Source: Chloroflexota bacterium
GTDB lineage: Bacteria; Chloroflexota; Limnocylindria; Limnocylindrales; CSP1-4
Assembly: GCA_034434735.1 (NCBI GenBank)
Contig: DAOTYQ010000086.1
Coordinates: 1-58,839 of the forward strand
Length of the DNA stretch: 58,839 nt
Direction of reading: 5' to 3'
Of this stretch, positions 1 to 13,958 are shown piece after piece. How positions within the stretch are numbered: the stretch's first letter is position 1; the number at the start of each line of letters is the position of its first letter. A program made the translations under genes and the position numbers. A model generated the notes under the pieces. It was not told where the DNA came from, ran no database searches, and worked only from the letters and a program-made list of their open reading frames with translations.

Positions 1-687
1 AAGTCGAGATCGCCATGCGCCGCTGCCTTTCCAACTTCCTCGAGGAGTGTCATCCTGTCTGTGGCCATCGCCTGCGGTCCTCCCAGCTGTCGCTCGATAT
101 CTGCTGGAAGCCTAGGCGGTGGCCGCTCCGCAGTGAAGCACCCCCGCAATTTCCACCACGTCCTGGGACACTACTCCGACCCCGATCACCCCTGGCGGCG
201 ATATCGTGCGATCCTACCACGGTGACAACGTCGCTGACCGCTTACCGGCCAGGATCGCTGTTCTCCGACAGACCGGGTCGGTGCTGAGGGATGGGGGTCG
301 CCGTTCCTTGGTAGTCAGTGGAGCGTGCAACAGAAAGACGACGGGGTCCCAGGGGGTCCGATCTCGGTCCGAGGGTTGCGGACGCGACCGTGGTCGAAAC
401 CAGCCGTCGCAAGGCGACGCGACCGCGTGTCCCTGGTCCGGATCGTGCGCTCGGCCGCGGATCGTGTGCTCGTTCGGTCGACTGGAGGACAGGCTGTACC
501 GACGGGCTCGTCGCCAGATCGGCGTCCGCGGAGGAAGGTGGGCGCGGAGGATGCCGGACACGAAAGCGCCCGAAGGAACCGTCCGTCCTGGCTCGCGGCT
601 GGTGCAGGCACCGGCTGCGTCGCCATCATCAGAGGCCCCTTCGGGCACCACGAACCCTACCCTCCCGCCGGCCGCTCGACAAGACGG

Positions 688-749
688 TTATCCACGAACT
701 CCGACGGTTGCCGCGCGCCGGCGAGCGACTTGTCCACGCCCCGTCCACA
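688..749 (+). promoter_or_regulatory. DnaA-box-like 9-mers (unit A)
   Basis: TTATCCACG at 688-696 and TTGTCCACG at 730-738, same orientation, 42 bp apart, plus GTCCACA at 743-749. Each is an 8/9 match to TTATCCACA or TTGTCCACA. Function not shown. Confidence 0.35.
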
Positions 750-969
750 CCGGCCCGACGGGGTGCAGTCTCGGGCGGGGCTGAGGCGTCGGCCGCGGGC
801 TGGGGCGACGGTCGTCGGCGGAGCCCCGGCCGGGCCCACGAAAACGCCCGAAGGAACCGCCGATCCGAGGTCGACACCGGGTGATGCAGAGCACCTCCGG
901 TACCGTTCGGTCCAGGGCCCCTTCGGGCAGAGATCAGCGTACGCAGCGACCGGTCCCCTGCCAAGGGGG

Positions 970-1020
970 TTGTCCACGAACTTCGCGATTTGCGGCCGCC
1001 CGCGGCCCGACTTGTCCACC
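970..1020 (+). promoter_or_regulatory. DnaA-box-like 9-mers (unit B)
   Basis: TTGTCCACG at 970-978 and TTGTCCACC at 1012-1020, same orientation and the same 42-bp spacing as unit A. Confidence 0.35.
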
Positions 1021-1102
1021 GCCCGCCAACATCGAGCCCGAGCTGGGTTCCCCCTCCCCTCCCGCCCGCTCCGAGGCCAGACGACGTCGGCCCCGCAACC
1101 GC

Positions 1103-1726
1103 TCAGTCGAGCTCGAGCGGCCAGACGCGGCCGCCCTCGACGAGCGGCCGGCCGGCTCCGTCGAGGCTGCCCGACCAGGCCGAGCGCCGGAGGCCGGGCG
1201 GCGAGCCGGGCTCGAGGGACCACGTCCGCTCGGCGAGCCGAGCGACGCGAGCCCGGCCCGACACGGGTCGGAGAAACCGGTCGACGGTGACGGTCGGCAG
1301 CTCGATCGCTTCCCCGACGGACAACCCTTCCCCGACGGCGGCGACGAGGGCGAAGGGGCCGAAGCCGTCCACCACGTCGACGACGGCGCCGGCCGCCCAG
1401 GGCAGCGAGAGGTGCTCGACCCCGTTCGGGGTGACGAGGTTGCCGTGCAGGGCGCCCTCCGCGAGCTCCGGATGAAGGGTCAAGAGCCCGCTCGCGCTCG
1501 TCGCCTCCAGGCGCGTCGGCCGCCCCGCCGGATCGAGCTCCAACAGGACGGCATGCTCGACGCCGCCCGCCCGCAAGAGGCTCCACCGCCAGCGCCGGCC
1601 GCGCCGACCCTCGGCGACCGACCAGAGGAGACGCCGTTCGCTCCCGAGGCTAACGGCGCCCCCAGCTCGGAGCCAGGACATCGACCCGTCCCCGCCAGCC
1701 TCGCGGTCGGCGGCCGGCTCGGCCAT
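1103..1726 (-). CDS. Hypothetical protein (207 aa)
   Basis: ORF starts 4 nt downstream of the hflX stop on the same strand and has GC-rich third positions. No family recognised. Confidence 0.55.
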   Translation of the reverse strand: MAEPAADREAGGDGSMSWLRAGGAVSLGSERRLLWSVAEGRRGRRWRWSLLRAGGVEHAVLLELDPAGRPTRLEATSASGLLTLHPELAEGALHGNLVTPNGVEHLSLPWAAGAVVDVVDGFGPFALVAAVGEGLSVGEAIELPTVTVDRFLRPVSGRARVARLAERTWSLEPGSPPGLRRSAWSGSLDGAGRPLVEGGRVWPLELD

Positions 1727-1730
1727 CGCT

Positions 1731-3113
1731 CTAGGCCCGGCGGCGGCCCTCGGCGAGGGCCGGAAGGCCGAGCACCTCCGCAGGCGCCACCTCGCTCGGC
1801 GGTGGCGCCTCGGCTCGACGCCGGCGTCCGTCGCGGGTTGCGACGGCCCGGAGCTCGGCGGCGAGCGCCGGCGAGACCCGGCCCCGAACCCGAACCCCCT
1901 CGGGTCGATACTCGAGCTCGACGGTCCCCCGCTCCCGGACCCGAGCCAGGAGTTCGCCGGCCTGGTACGGGAGGAGGACGTCGACGGGGACCCAAAGGTC
2001 GGCCAGGAGGGCCGAGACGGCGGCCCGGAGCGTGTCGATCCCGAAGCCGGTCCGGGCCGAGACCGGGACCGCCTCGCCGAGGGCAGGGGCTGAGAGCTCG
2101 GCCGAGCGAGCAGCCGGCTCGAGGAGGTCGACCTTGTTCAGGGCGACGACGCGGGGCTTGTCCCCCGCCCCGAGCTCGGCGAGGACCTGCTGGACCGTCG
2201 CCCGGTGCTCGGGGGCGTGCGGATCGGCGACGTCGACGACCTCGATGAGGGCGTCGGCCCGGGTCACCTCCTCAAGGGTCGCCCGGAAGGCGTCGACGAG
2301 CTGGTGGGGGAGCTTGTGGATGAAGCCGACGGTGTCGGTGACGATGGCCGTCTGACCCTCGCCGAGGCGGACGAGCCGGCTCGTCGGGTCGAGGGTGGCG
2401 AAGAGCCGGTCCTCGGCCCGGACGACCTCGGCTCCGACGAGGGCGTTGAGGAGCGTGCTCTTGCCGGCGTTCGTGTAGCCGACGATGGAGATCGCCGGGA
2501 TGAGGCGCCGGTCCCGTCCGCGAGCCGCAGTCGCGCGTTGACGGCGGACCTGCTCGACCCGCTCGCGGAGGGTCTTGATCCGCTCCCGGATGACCCGCCG
2601 GTCGGTCTCAAGCTGGGTCTCGCCCGGGCCCCGGGTGCCGATCCCGCCGCCGGTTCGGGAGAGGTGGGTCCAGAGGCGGGTCAGGCGGGGGAGCTGGTAC
2701 TCGAGCTGGGCGAGCTCGACCTGGAGGCGCCCCTCGTGGGTCTGGGCGTGCTGGGCGAAGATGTCGAGGATGAGCCGGCTCCGGTCGATGACCTTGACCC
2801 CGAGGAGCCCCTCGAGCCGGCGCTGCTGAGCCGGGGAGAGCTCGTCGTCGGCGACGAGGAGCGTGAAGCCGGTCTCGTGCTTCGCGGCGACGAGGGACTC
2901 GGCCTTGCCCTTGCCGACGTACCAATTCGGGTCGACGTGGCGGCGCCGCTGCCACTCGGCGCCGACGACGACGGCGCCCGCCGTGTCGGCGAGGCTCGCC
3001 AGTTCGGCGAGCGAGTCGGCGGCCGTCCAGCCGCCGTCCTCGCCGGTCTCGACGGCGATGAGGAAGGCGCGCTCGACGGGCGGCGCCAGATCGATCGTTG
3101 TCGTTCGTGCCAT
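1731..3113 (-). CDS. hflX: GTPase HflX
   Basis: N-terminal HflX domain (LILDIFAQHAQTHEGRLQVELAQLEY). G motifs GYTNAGKSTLLNAL, DTVGF and NKVD. Confidence 0.95.
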   Translation of the reverse strand: MARTTTIDLAPPVERAFLIAVETGEDGGWTAADSLAELASLADTAGAVVVGAEWQRRRHVDPNWYVGKGKAESLVAAKHETGFTLLVADDELSPAQQRRLEGLLGVKVIDRSRLILDIFAQHAQTHEGRLQVELAQLEYQLPRLTRLWTHLSRTGGGIGTRGPGETQLETDRRVIRERIKTLRERVEQVRRQRATAARGRDRRLIPAISIVGYTNAGKSTLLNALVGAEVVRAEDRLFATLDPTSRLVRLGEGQTAIVTDTVGFIHKLPHQLVDAFRATLEEVTRADALIEVVDVADPHAPEHRATVQQVLAELGAGDKPRVVALNKVDLLEPAARSAELSAPALGEAVPVSARTGFGIDTLRAAVSALLADLWVPVDVLLPYQAGELLARVRERGTVELEYRPEGVRVRGRVSPALAAELRAVATRDGRRRRAEAPPPSEVAPAEVLGLPALAEGRRRA

Positions 3114-3199
3114 CGCTGCCAGGATAGCCGAGGGGGCGACTCGGCGACGACGGCGCTCCGGGCGGCGCGGCCGCGCATCCTCCCCTCCCCTACCCGACC

Positions 3200-4243: not shown

Positions 4244-5864
4244 GGGTCCCGCGGAGCGAGTACGGCCCGGCGTGCTCGATCCGGACCTCGACGAACTCGC
4301 CGACGAGGGCCGCCGGTCCGCTGAAGTGGACGAGCTTGTTCTGGCGGGTTCGGCCGGCGAGGGCCACCTCGCCCGGGTTCGGCCGAGGTGGACGGCTCCC
4401 CTCCCCCGTCGGCTCGTGGTCGTGGCTCCGGGGCGGAACGACCTCGTCGACGAGGACCTCGACGACCCGCCCGAGCCAGGACCGGTTCCGCTCGAGGCCG
4501 ATCGCCTCCTGGACGCGGAGGAGCTCGTTGAGGCGACGACGCTTCTCCTCCGGCGGGACGTCGTCGGCGAGCTTCGTCGCCGCTGTCCCCGGTCGCTCCG
4601 AGTAGGCGGCGGCAAAGACCTGGTCGTAGCGGACGGTCCGGAGGAGCTCGAGGGTCGCCTCGAACTGGGCACCGGTCTCGCCGCAGAAGCCGACGATGAC
4701 GTCGGTGCTCAGGGCCAGGTCGGGGACGGCGGCTCGGAGACGCTCGACCCGCTCGAGGTAGTGGCCGATCGTGTACTGGCGACCCATCCGCCGCAGGACC
4801 GCGTCGTCGCCGGACTGGACCGGCAGGTGGAGGTGCTCGCAGACGGACGCGCACTCGGCCATGGCTGCGATGAGCCGATCGGAGAGGTCCCAGGGGTGGC
4901 TCGTCACGAAGCGAAGCCGCGGGATGGCCGGCCGCCCGTCGGCGGTCCGGAGCCCGTCGATGGCCCGGATGAGTTCGGCCAGATCGGGCCGGCCCCGGAG
5001 GTCGAGCCGGCGACCGGCCCACCGTTCGGCGGCGACGTGGGCGAAGCGCGGCTCCGGCGGGAGGTCGTGGCCGTAGCTGTTCACGTTCTGGCCGAGGAGG
5101 GTGACCTCCCGGTAGCCGGCTTCGGCGAGCTTTCGCGCCTCGGCGAGGACCTCGTCGAAGGGTCGGCTCCGTTCGGGGCCGCGGCTCAGCGGGACGATGC
5201 AGTAGGTGCACGTCTTGTCGCAGCCGTAGATGATCGGCAGCCAGGCCGAAATCCGGCTCGATCGGGCGACGATCCCCCCGGCGACGGCGGCGGCTCGAGC
5301 CTCGGGCAGGTGGACGGCGTCCGACACCGGCCGGCCGCCGACGGTCGTCGTCGCCGCGCTCGCTGCGACGGCGCCGCGGCCGATGGCGGCCTGGGCCGAG
5401 GCGAGACCGAGCCGCTCGACGATCTCGGGCTCCTCGTCGGGCCGGAGGAAGAGGTCGACGGCCGGGAAGCGCCGGGCGAGGGTTGCCCGCGAGGTCTCTC
5501 GAACCGCACAGCCGGTCAGGACGACCCGGAGCCGCGGGTTCGATGCCTTCAGGCGCCGGAGCTGGCCCTGGCGCCCGATGACCTTCGCCTCGGCCGCCTC
5601 GCGGATGGCGCAGGTGTTGATGACGATGAGGTCGGCTGCCTCGAAGGAGGGCGCCGGCTCGCAGCCGGCCGCGAGGAGGCGCCCGGCCATCTCCTCCGAA
5701 TCGCTCTTGTTCATCTGGCAGCCGAGGGTCCAGATGGCGAAGCGCGGCAGGACCGCGCCGTCGGGACGGTACTCGCTGAGGCGCGGGTCGACGGCCGGTG
5801 CCGCCGGTCGGGGCGACGGCTCGACGGCGGTCCGATCGAGGACGGGCAAGAGACGGATGCTCAT
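4230..5864 (-). CDS. miaB: tRNA-2-methylthio-N6-dimethylallyladenosine synthase MiaB (radical SAM)
   Basis: N-terminal TLGCQMN motif, radical-SAM CDKTCTYC, and a TRAM-like C-terminus. Confidence 0.95.
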   Translation of the reverse strand: MSIRLLPVLDRTAVEPSPRPAAPAVDPRLSEYRPDGAVLPRFAIWTLGCQMNKSDSEEMAGRLLAAGCEPAPSFEAADLIVINTCAIREAAEAKVIGRQGQLRRLKASNPRLRVVLTGCAVRETSRATLARRFPAVDLFLRPDEEPEIVERLGLASAQAAIGRGAVAASAATTTVGGRPVSDAVHLPEARAAAVAGGIVARSSRISAWLPIIYGCDKTCTYCIVPLSRGPERSRPFDEVLAEARKLAEAGYREVTLLGQNVNSYGHDLPPEPRFAHVAAERWAGRRLDLRGRPDLAELIRAIDGLRTADGRPAIPRLRFVTSHPWDLSDRLIAAMAECASVCEHLHLPVQSGDDAVLRRMGRQYTIGHYLERVERLRAAVPDLALSTDVIVGFCGETGAQFEATLELLRTVRYDQVFAAAYSERPGTAATKLADDVPPEEKRRRLNELLRVQEAIGLERNRSWLGRVVEVLVDEVVPPRSHDHEPTGEGSRPPRPNPGEVALAGRTRQNKLVHFSGPAALVGEFVEVRIEHAGPYSLRGTRVGA

Positions 5865-12875: not shown

Positions 12876-13958
12876 TCAGCGCCCGGATGGACCGGCGGCG
12901 ATGTCCCAGATGGGCGCCATCTCGGCCTCGGCCCGCCGCGGCGGCGGGATCTCGTACCCGAGACGAGCGAGGTGGGCCCGGGCTGCCTCGGTGGCGACCC
13001 GACCCTGTGGGGTCCGGTCGAGGAAGCCGAGCCGGAGGAGGTACGGCTCGTAGACGTCCTCGATGGTCTCGACCTCCTCGGCCAGGACGGCGGCCAGGGC
13101 CGCGACGCCGACGGGTCCCGAGCCGAACTTCTGGACGATGGCGGCGAGGAGGCGGCGGTCGGTCCCGTCGAGGCCGGCCTCGTCGATCTCGAGGTTGGTC
13201 ATCGTCGCCTCCACGGCCGCCTCGTCGATCCGGCCCGAACCGTGGACCTGGGCATGATCCCGGACCCGCCGCAGGAGGCGGTTGACGACCCGGGGCGTGC
13301 CACGCCCGCGGCGGGCGATGGCTCGGGCGGCCGCCTCGTCGATGGCGACGCCGAGGATCCGGGCCGACCGGAGGACGATGGCGGTCAGCTCGTCCAAGGC
13401 GTAGAAGTCGAGCCGGTAGGTTGCCCCGAAGCGATCGAGGAGCGGGCTGCTCAGCCGCCCGGCCCGGGTCGTCGCGCCGACCACGGTGAAGGGCTTGACG
13501 CTGAGCCGGAGCGAGCGGGCCGAGGGTCCCTTCCCGATCATGACGTCGACGACGAGGTCCTCCATCGCCGAGTAGAGGGTCTCTTCGATGGGCTTACCGA
13601 GGCGATGGATCTCGTCGATGAAGAGGACGTCCCGCTCGTCGAGGGCGGTCAGGATGGCGGCCAGGTCGCCCCGCCGCTCGAGGGCCGGCCCCGACGTATA
13701 GCGGATGTTCACCCCGAGCTCACGGGCGACGATGGTGGCGAGGGTCGTCTTGCCGAGCCCGGGTGGCCCGTAGAGGAGGATGTGATCGGCCGCCTCTCCC
13801 CTCCCCCGGGCGGCGGCGAGGAGGACGGAGAGGTTCGCCTTGACGTCCCGCTGCCCGATGTATTCGTCGAGGGAACGGGGCCGGAGGGTCGCCTCGGTGA
13901 TCCGGTCGACCTCGTCGAGGACGTCGGCGGCGAGGACCCGGAGGACGTCGTCGGTCAC
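12876..13958 (-). CDS. ruvB: Holliday junction helicase RuvB
   Basis: Motifs [12 protein letters not shown] and Walker [15 protein letters not shown]. Start set at GTG 13958, internal to track ORF 12876..14081. Confidence 0.95.

Follow-up and report, generated by a model that had tools for sequence, protein, structure and literature searches.

Two tandem candidate genes for small structured RNAs with phased DnaA-box-like sites upstream, next to hflX in Limnocylindria (Chloroflexota)

We analyzed a 58,839-bp stretch of high-GC Limnocylindria (Chloroflexota) DNA (hereafter, the window), which carries near its left end, on the minus strand and downstream of hflX and a conserved hypothetical open reading frame (ORF), two tandem units that are very probably genes for small structured RNAs. 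The original prediction had described positions 69-1102 as a gene-free stretch with a diverged ~282-bp tandem module bearing DnaA-box-like 9-mers, and had offered as explanations a DnaA-box cluster, the iterons of an old integrated replicon or two paralogous structured RNAs. The absence of genes was borne out. Codon-position GC across 69-1102 is 0.68-0.72 at all three positions in every frame, compared to 0.80/0.50/0.92 for hflX and 0.79/0.59/0.91 for a neighbouring ORF that served as coding controls, and a Pfam search of the four shadow ORFs crossing the region returned zero matches. The GC content of positions 1-360, which had been estimated at ~64%, was measured as 63.6%; that of 69-1102 is 69.9% and that of the whole window 73.7%.

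The tandem arrangement is marked by two direct repeats, 559-595/837-873 (81% identity, 278-nt spacing) and 722-743/1004-1025 (77% identity, 282-nt spacing), and pairwise alignment of the units yields four conserved blocks that keep their order, as had been proposed. The ~280-bp period escaped Tandem Repeats Finder, the divergence between the units being too great. We refer to the units as copy A and copy B (Table 1). On the minus strand both have the same layout of TTGnnn, 17 nt, TAnnnT, 7 nt and a hairpin.

Table 1 Features of the RNA locus and of the neighbouring genes in the window.
Feature	Position	Strand	Basis or detail
Candidate small RNA gene, copy A (unit 2 of the original prediction; predicted to be transcribed first)	838-928	minus	Covariance model, folding, L001 orthologue
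Hairpin, copy A	846-928	minus	5' GCCCGAAGGGGCC pairs with GGUUCCUUCGGGC
Tail GUUUUCGU, copy A	838-845	minus	U-rich, after the hairpin
Predicted -10 hexamer TACGCT, copy A	936-941	minus	Read from the sequence
Predicted -35 hexamer TTGGCA, copy A	959-964	minus	17 nt upstream of the -10
Proximal box, copy A	970-978	minus	CGTGGACAA on the minus strand, TTGTCCACG on the plus strand
Distal box GGTGGACAA, copy A	1012-1020	minus	42 bp upstream of the proximal box
Degenerate third repeat TGTTGGCGG, copy A	1023-1031	minus	11 bp beyond the distal box
Candidate small RNA gene, copy B (unit 1 of the original prediction)	560-646	minus	Covariance model, folding, L001 orthologue
Hairpin, copy B	568-646	minus	Closing helix GCCCGAAGGGGCC/GGUUCCUUCGGGC
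Tail GCUUUCGU, copy B	560-567	minus	U-rich, after the hairpin
Predicted -10 hexamer TAGGGT, copy B	654-659	minus	Read from the sequence
Predicted -35 hexamer TTGTCG, copy B	677-682	minus	17 nt upstream of the -10
Proximal box, copy B	688-696	minus	CGTGGATAA on the minus strand, TTATCCACG on the plus strand
Distal box pair, copy B	730-749	minus	CGTGGACAA at 730-738 and TGTGGACGG at 741-749
Spacer between the predicted copy A terminator and the copy B boxes	750-837		GC 80-85%
Conserved hypothetical ORF, 207 aa	1103-1726	minus	Directly follows hflX, precedes the RNA genes
hflX	1731-3113	minus	Right of the RNA pair
miaA	3200-4672	minus	Right of the RNA pair

We assembled relatives of the units from loci fetched around hflX homologues in 80 genomes and from a metagenome scan with the pattern TANNNTNNNNNNTGCCCGRAGGGGC, which recovered at least 120 contigs. 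All family statistics given here are counts among the matches listed from that scan, together with the hflX-homologue loci and the window; taxonomy is known for the genome-derived loci only. Downstream of hflX and the hypothetical gene, the RNA unit is present twice in each of the loci L001, L003, L005 and L008 and once in L004, so that the conserved blocks do recur in relatives. In their interiors, copy A is 88% identical to its orthologue at L001 12234-12315 and copy B 87% identical to its orthologue at L001 12597-12675, whereas the two copies share only 63% with each other. The duplication is therefore old and has been maintained, and in this respect the original prediction, which had regarded the repeat as decayed outside the four blocks, did not hold. 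Spacer length is not conserved (unit spacing 363 nt in L001 versus 282 nt in the window), and the gene that follows the L001 pair differs, being an apparent transporter.

Over the fetched loci and the window, 137 pattern matches were listed. The 3' strand of the helix is also present in 108 of them, at a distance of 72-277 nt that gives the range of RNA lengths, and almost all of these 108 have a GTGGA box near -50. The RNA gene lies in other gene contexts on at least about 100 metagenome contigs. As a negative control, a scan of viral contigs gave 7 pattern matches, all without the 3' helix strand and the boxes, and chance matches thus look different from the family. Tandem pairs are common (e.g. 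L111, L122, L128, L149, L164 and L171). In L125, L127 and L152, the first tandem paralogue is 276-277 nt long with up to six predicted hairpins and the second is 82 nt, showing that paralogues have diverged greatly in size while their ends and promoter were kept. The neighbourhood depends on the lineage, the RNA gene standing either after hflX and the hypothetical gene or between moaA and a purine nucleoside phosphorylase (PNP) gene.

No Rfam family accounts for these units. At the gathering threshold, Rfam 15 reported only two tRNAs in the whole window. With E-values up to 10, positions 1-1500, which include the 1-1102 proposed for such a scan, gave only chance matches to eukaryotic microRNA and long non-coding RNA families, and homologues in 16 other loci (L003, L005 and 14 metagenome loci) gave no match. 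Our literature search on DnaA boxes and the DnaA regulon, small and non-coding RNA, Chloroflexi and Limnocylindria found no prior description.

The complementary 9-mers GCCCGAAGG and CCTTCGGGC lie exactly where they had been reported, at 568-576/638-646 and 846-854/920-928. They had been suggested to close an RNA stem-loop, and they do form the base of a conserved, covarying hairpin, but that hairpin belongs to the minus strand and not to the strand that had been read. Searched with a covariance model built from 20 short family members, the window gave two matches and no more, each of them on the minus strand, scoring 85 bits for copy A (E 4e-17; 21.9 bits on the plus strand) and 71 bits for copy B (E 8e-14; 31.3 bits on the plus strand). 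Folded on the minus strand, copy A has a minimum free energy of -54.1 kcal/mol (z -3.2) and copy B one of -56.5 kcal/mol (z -3.8), the latter stability being reached by 0 of 200 shuffles. Plus-strand folds are weaker (-40.8 and -49.2 kcal/mol, respectively), because the G·U pairs of the helix turn into A·C mismatches there.

The consensus of the 20-homologue alignment is a single irregular hairpin in which 94.1% of cells are paired and the covariation score is 0.35; in controls with the partners slid by 1-3 columns, the values are 36-46% and 0.05-0.09, respectively. None of 500 shuffles matched the observed percentage paired or the covariation score. Compensatory changes were found at 14 of the 30 pairs. 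This covariation, on the minus strand, supports the option of two paralogous structured RNAs. Among the 101 distinct copies listed, the closing helix is near-invariant in sequence, yet its position 6 varies, with A-U in 73, G-C in 12 and G·U in 12. A G·U pair occupies position 10 in 82 copies and position 11 in 99. By a hand tally of the pair table, 113 of 594 alignment cells hold G·U, each of which would be an A·C mismatch on the opposite strand. The conserved G·U pairs thus identify the minus strand as the transcribed one.

Between the constant ends, the interior varies from 1 to 6 predicted sub-hairpins across the family and holds little single-stranded sequence; each window copy has one hairpin only. 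Among the listed matches, hairpins are capped mainly by the tetraloops CUUG (48), GCAA (42), GCGA (17) and GUGA (10), and a repeated loop, GA-GAU-CAC-AUC-AA (GAGAUCACAUCAA, its CAC lying within GAUCACAUC), occurs in 26 cases. A K-turn at the internal loop beside the closing helix was dropped on inspection by eye, the required GA pairs being inconsistent across homologues. After the stem, the listed family members have a mean of 4.5 U in 9 nt. A simple terminator scan calls neither of the window hairpins, because the stem is long and interrupted. Since the 13-bp closing helix joins the 5' and 3' ends of the RNA and the U-rich tail comes next, the helix would double as an intrinsic terminator.

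Upstream of the hairpin, we observed TAnnnT at -13 to -8 in all 11 copies found by a search that did not require it, and also in all 8 of a further set of copies traced by way of the boxes or the covariance model. TTG with a spacer of 17-18 nt is the commonest arrangement (57 of the 101 listed copies), and T is present at -36 in 87 of 98. The predicted promoter is of the sigma-70 type, with a good -10 and a weak -35. Transcription likely starts at G928 or the preceding base in copy A, and at G646 or the preceding base in copy B.

Farther upstream lie the DnaA-box-like sites. TTRTCCAC occurs four times in the window (at 688, 730, 970 and 1012, all on the plus strand) against a chance expectation of 0.26, and four occurrences were reached by 0 of 100 shuffles. 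The sites are 42 bp apart within each unit and match the DnaA box at 8 of 9 positions. In number, orientation and spacing, and in the extra GTCCACA at 743-749, the sites are as had been described. With one mismatch to TTRTCCACA allowed, six sites were found in the window, four of them here and the other two isolated within genes. In total, six to seven DnaA-box-like 9-mers fall within ~340 bp (688-1031), in one orientation and with 11-bp and 42-bp phasing. The consensus TTRTCCACA was taken from Table 1 of PMC4285127 and derives from bacteria other than the host: TTATCCACA is the high-affinity box of E. coli and B. subtilis, and TTGTCCACA that of M. tuberculosis and S. coelicolor.

Read on the minus strand, the proximal box of both units is TTCGTGGAYAAC, situated 42 bp downstream of the distal box and ending four to five bases ahead of the -35. 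The two distal boxes of copy B are 11 bp apart, 42 and 53 bp upstream of its proximal box. Distal pairs with this 11-bp spacing are also present in L001, L003, L005, L008 and many metagenome copies, and the TGTTGG element of the third repeat of copy A recurs in L001. Across the family, a 9-mer differing from the DnaA box at no more than one position stands at -51/-50 in 96 of 99 non-redundant promoters among the matches listed, with the proximal-box consensus gAAnyT-C-GTGGA-Y-AA-G. Additional boxes in forward orientation are found at -93 (42 bp upstream, the Limnocylindria type) or at -84 (33 bp upstream, other subfamilies), and reverse boxes with the canonical consensus YTGTCCACA lie at -106 and -117, 11 bp apart, in other subfamilies. 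Spacings of 11, 33 and 42 bp place all boxes on one helical face. The motif GTGGAYAA occurs 20 times in 279 kb of Limnocylindria DNA. Seventeen of these sites precede copies that were already known; of the remaining three, two are also at RNA-gene copies, one a variant and one cut off by a contig end.

The genes to the right of the RNA pair all lie on the minus strand. The window HflX shares 92% identity with that of the metagenome-assembled genome (MAG) KatS3mg065 and 69-80% with its homologues in other Limnocylindria MAGs. The 207-aa ORF is conserved in many Limnocylindria loci (37-61% identity), gave no sequence match in Pfam, NCBIfam or PDB, and is a lineage-specific protein in conserved synteny with the RNA pair. 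The miaA ORF is listed with 490 aa, of which the IPP-transferase domain spans residues 207-444 only. Its N-terminal ~160 residues are of low complexity and rich in Ser, Arg and Pro, and the true start is therefore probably further downstream.

On the other side of the RNA pair, three contigs of the same species from other samples (L201-L203) are 99.9% identical to the window over 176-3134. To the left of 176 they depart from it and share one different continuation among themselves; the next called gene in L201 is a convergent Pyr_redox_3/Lys_Orn_oxgnase (oxidoreductase) gene. The DNA downstream of copy B thus differs between strains or assemblies; the break at ~176 reflects a rearrangement between strains or else a join made in assembly, and the minus-strand ATG at window position 68 is only a putative gene start. 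Positions 150-560, downstream of copy B, showed no conservation with L001 by comparison or covariance-model scan and thus hold neither a third copy nor another shared element. Two short repeats are not conserved in L001: a 24-nt tandem repeat of 1.9 copies, CGGGCGGGGCTGAGGCGTCGGCCG, at 772-819 in the spacer between the RNA genes, and a 15-nt direct repeat, CGGATCGTG(C/T)GCTCG, at 439-472 downstream of copy B.

Three further elements were seen near copies in other loci. A motif, CCGATAAGGnnAGTTATGTCCG, with inverted ATAA/TTAT halves is shared downstream of RNA genes in two contexts (L001 ~12905-12935 and L201 ~3150-3175) and is absent from the window; it may be an operator. In the PNP subfamily, a second conserved hairpin, CCCGaCGGGACGUGAUCGGCAUCCCGGUGUCGAUACUUCCGUCGGG, lies between the RNA terminator and the PNP start (L114 ~5345-5400, and also in L101, L082, L138, L161, L179, L180 and L189). 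Rfam gave no match to this hairpin, which may belong to the PNP gene as a leader in its own right. In L190, ~60 nt downstream of its RNA copy, positions 976-1015 (minus strand) give a sub-threshold match to the Guanidine-II (mini-ykkC) riboswitch, with 28.2 bits against a gathering threshold of 32 and an E-value of 0.05.

These data suggest that 540-1031 holds two tandem paralogous small structured RNA genes on the minus strand that would be transcribed independently, and we consider it probable that they are stand-alone genes with box-controlled promoters. Each predicted promoter is preceded by three direct repeats of GTGGAYAA-type 9-mers, the proximal one at -51 and the others 42 and 53 bp further up. 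A factor bound to these phased boxes would recruit or stabilise RNA polymerase, transcription would begin ~7 nt past the -10, at or beside the first G of the helix, and it would stop at the U-rich tail. The predicted product is a blunt, almost fully paired hairpin of 79-83 nt, or an RNA of ~80-90 nt with its tail. Because their distances to the promoter are fixed, the boxes would act as transcription-factor sites of the RNA gene and not as an origin. DnaA is the best candidate for the box-binding protein, since the sites match TTRTCCACA at 8 of 9 positions, and we put it forward tentatively. The position of the proximal box, which ends just before the -35, would suit an activator, for which it is usual, better than a repressor. 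As for the function of the RNA, nearly all of it is paired, homologues differ in their number of hairpins, and the loops are structural tetraloops or a repeated loop motif. These properties would fit a protein-binding role, as a sponge or scaffold, better than pairing with mRNA, a suggestion we regard as more doubtful than the naming of DnaA.

Several observations weigh against this interpretation. Two relatives, L007 and L009, have hflX and the hypothetical gene, and no copy is present in the DNA fetched from them. The proximal box reads CGTGGAYAA, its last base agreeing with the DnaA consensus in just 2 of 97 copies, and its A-rich GAAnyT flank is conserved beyond the 9-mer; the odd last base and the conserved flank could reflect a factor other than DnaA or an added contact with the polymerase. 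A simple promoter and terminator scanner reported nothing over 1-1800, which we judge to be a limit of its criteria because these exclude weak -35 hexamers and long, interrupted stems. The pattern used in the metagenome search fixed the -10 and the 5' strand of the helix, so both are conserved in that set by construction; the 3' helix strand, the -35, the boxes and the interior were left free. Finally, the transcript, its ends and its terminator are predictions.

Among the alternatives, the one that survives best reads each unit as a cis-acting leader, that is, a promoter with a regulated terminator (attenuator) governing read-through into the downstream gene, and not as the source of a trans-acting RNA. 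Such a leader would explain why the hairpin starts at the predicted transcription start and ends as a terminator. The next gene downstream runs in the same direction in 39 of the 59 loci listed, often within 30-100 nt, and in 21 listed loci of one subfamily it is the PNP gene. In the other 20 of the 59 loci, however, including the same-species contig L201, the next gene is convergent, and what follows the RNA is highly diverse (genes for PNP, an MFS transporter, NUDIX, EamA and others). In the window two units stand in series and are followed by ~380 nt of unconserved DNA. No antiterminator pairing is evident either, nearly every base being engaged in one hairpin. We consider this explanation improbable.

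Alternatively, the boxes could act on DnaA itself, as an origin or as a datA/DARS-like titration or recharging site, with the hairpins being incidental. The number, uniform orientation and phasing of the 9-mers, the canonical outer boxes 11 bp apart in other subfamilies and the near absence of boxes elsewhere in 279 kb of related DNA would all be expected of such a cluster, and the 9-mers pointed out in the original prediction are indeed real, strongly conserved and highly specific to the locus. An oriC-like site is contradicted by the gene content, as tblastn with an E. coli DnaA query found no dnaA in the window and none near any copy in 200 loci, its sole match being an unrelated Legionella locus. 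No linked dnaN was seen in this work, which included no separate dnaN search. There is also no AT-rich unwinding element, the lowest GC content of any 40-nt stretch in 1-1400 being 55%. Cumulative GC skew gave no minimum or maximum assignable to the site, which adjoins the left edge of the window, and speaks neither for nor against an origin there. Titration, for its part, would not need a fixed register, yet among the matches listed the boxes keep theirs to the -35/-10 and the RNA within 1 nt in 96 of 99 promoters. Their set positions at -51, -93/-84, -106 and -117 are left unexplained by a datA/DARS-like site. Moreover, the whole unit is tandemly duplicated and occurs in different neighbourhoods by lineage, and the hairpin shows covariation and G·U pairs at the level of RNA. 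Together these findings leave a DnaA-directed cluster with a small chance.

Plain intrinsic terminators of the hflX operon, duplicated by chance and accompanied by promoters and boxes that are fortuitous or relics, are a highly unlikely explanation. The hairpins are GC-rich, a U-rich tail follows each, and the gene next upstream has the same orientation in 70 of the 81 cases listed, all of which a terminator would share. It would not account for a sequence that is kept across genomes whose HflX proteins are only 69-80% identical and in unrelated contexts, for a -10, a -35 TTG and boxes at fixed distances to the hairpin, or for an interior that varies from 1 to 6 sub-hairpins between constant ends. 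Remnants of a protein-coding gene, or iterons left by an old integrated replicon, have a negligible chance of explaining the region: long shadow ORFs do cross it, and one gene caller places a 287-aa ORF there in L202, but it has neither codon-position periodicity in any frame nor a Pfam match, its conserved blocks fit promoter and RNA features instead of a reading frame, and no replication gene adjoins it, the neighbours being hflX, miaA, the hypothetical gene and, downstream in L201, the oxidoreductase gene. We also discarded plasmid-type iterons as such (17-22-bp repeats beside a rep gene), the repeat core here being 8-9 bp, at intervals of 11 or 42 bp.

The small RNAs of the Csr/Rsm systems (CsrB, RsmX/Y/Z) are stand-alone genes with an intrinsic terminator, often present as several and sometimes tandem paralogues. 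Their number of repeated stem-loops varies, and a transcription-factor site lies upstream at a fixed distance from the promoter. The family described here resembles them in being stand-alone and paralogous or tandem, in its variable hairpin count and in its upstream site. It differs in that it has no GGA loop class, with CUUG, GNRA or GAGAUCACAUCAA loops instead, and in that the site resembles a DnaA box and not a GacA site. The Rfam models of the Csr/Rsm families do not match the window, each copy in the window is a single hairpin, and the host belongs to the Chloroflexota and not the Proteobacteria. Conserved closing helices formed by the 5' and 3' ends around a variable interior are also found in 6S RNA and bacterial Y RNAs, which act by binding protein, as we suggest for the window RNA. 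In contrast to these, the hairpins here span 79-83 nt, without a central bubble or a tRNA-like module; no Rfam match was obtained, and no rsr gene adjoins the window copies.

The arrangement of 9-mers of the TTATCCACA/TTGTCCACA type, phased and placed just upstream of a sigma-70-type promoter, is shared with DnaA-regulated promoters such as those of dnaA and nrdAB in E. coli and sda in B. subtilis. Here, however, the product would be a small RNA rather than a protein, the boxes are putative DnaA sites, and the proximal box departs from the consensus at its last base. Our literature search on DnaA with small or non-coding RNA found no DnaA-controlled small RNA. In E. coli datA and DARS1/2 and in the B. 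subtilis box clusters, three to five oriented, phased boxes likewise lie away from dnaA; in our family, by contrast, the boxes stand at set distances from a promoter and an RNA gene, and the complete unit occurs twice in the window. With oriC the locus shares a cluster of DnaA-type boxes in a non-coding stretch of slightly lower GC, and it differs in having no linked dnaA that we could find, no AT-rich unwinding element, tandem copies and shifting neighbourhoods. CcnA of Caulobacter is reported to be a non-coding RNA that modulates the master cell-cycle regulators CtrA and GcrA (PMC8959179). If the boxes bind DnaA, the window RNA would likewise be tied to replication and cell-cycle control; the regulators named for CcnA are CtrA and GcrA and not DnaA, and there is no sequence or structural similarity to the window RNA.

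In conclusion, the analysis adds a structured RNA family that is well supported and seems not to have been described before. It is abundant in metagenomes from soil and freshwater and belongs to Limnocylindria, a lineage known almost solely from metagenome-assembled genomes. Its promoter is unusual for a small RNA in having three to five helically phased DnaA-box-type sites at fixed distances. It is conceivable, if rather unlikely, that the boxes are true DnaA sites and the RNA a DnaA-controlled riboregulator in a large uncultured bacterial lineage. Its abundance would then mirror the state of the initiator and link the start of replication to some other process, such as nucleotide supply or ribosome and translation status. 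In a stronger form of this idea, the box arrays may also feed back on DnaA availability, as datA and DARS do, with the effect being modulated by transcription through the locus. If DnaA does bind the boxes, we know of no earlier example of a small RNA controlled directly by the replication initiator. The signature of box, promoter and closing helix is very clean, which makes the family easy to annotate, and the locus shows that an intergenic cluster of DnaA-like boxes need not be an origin.

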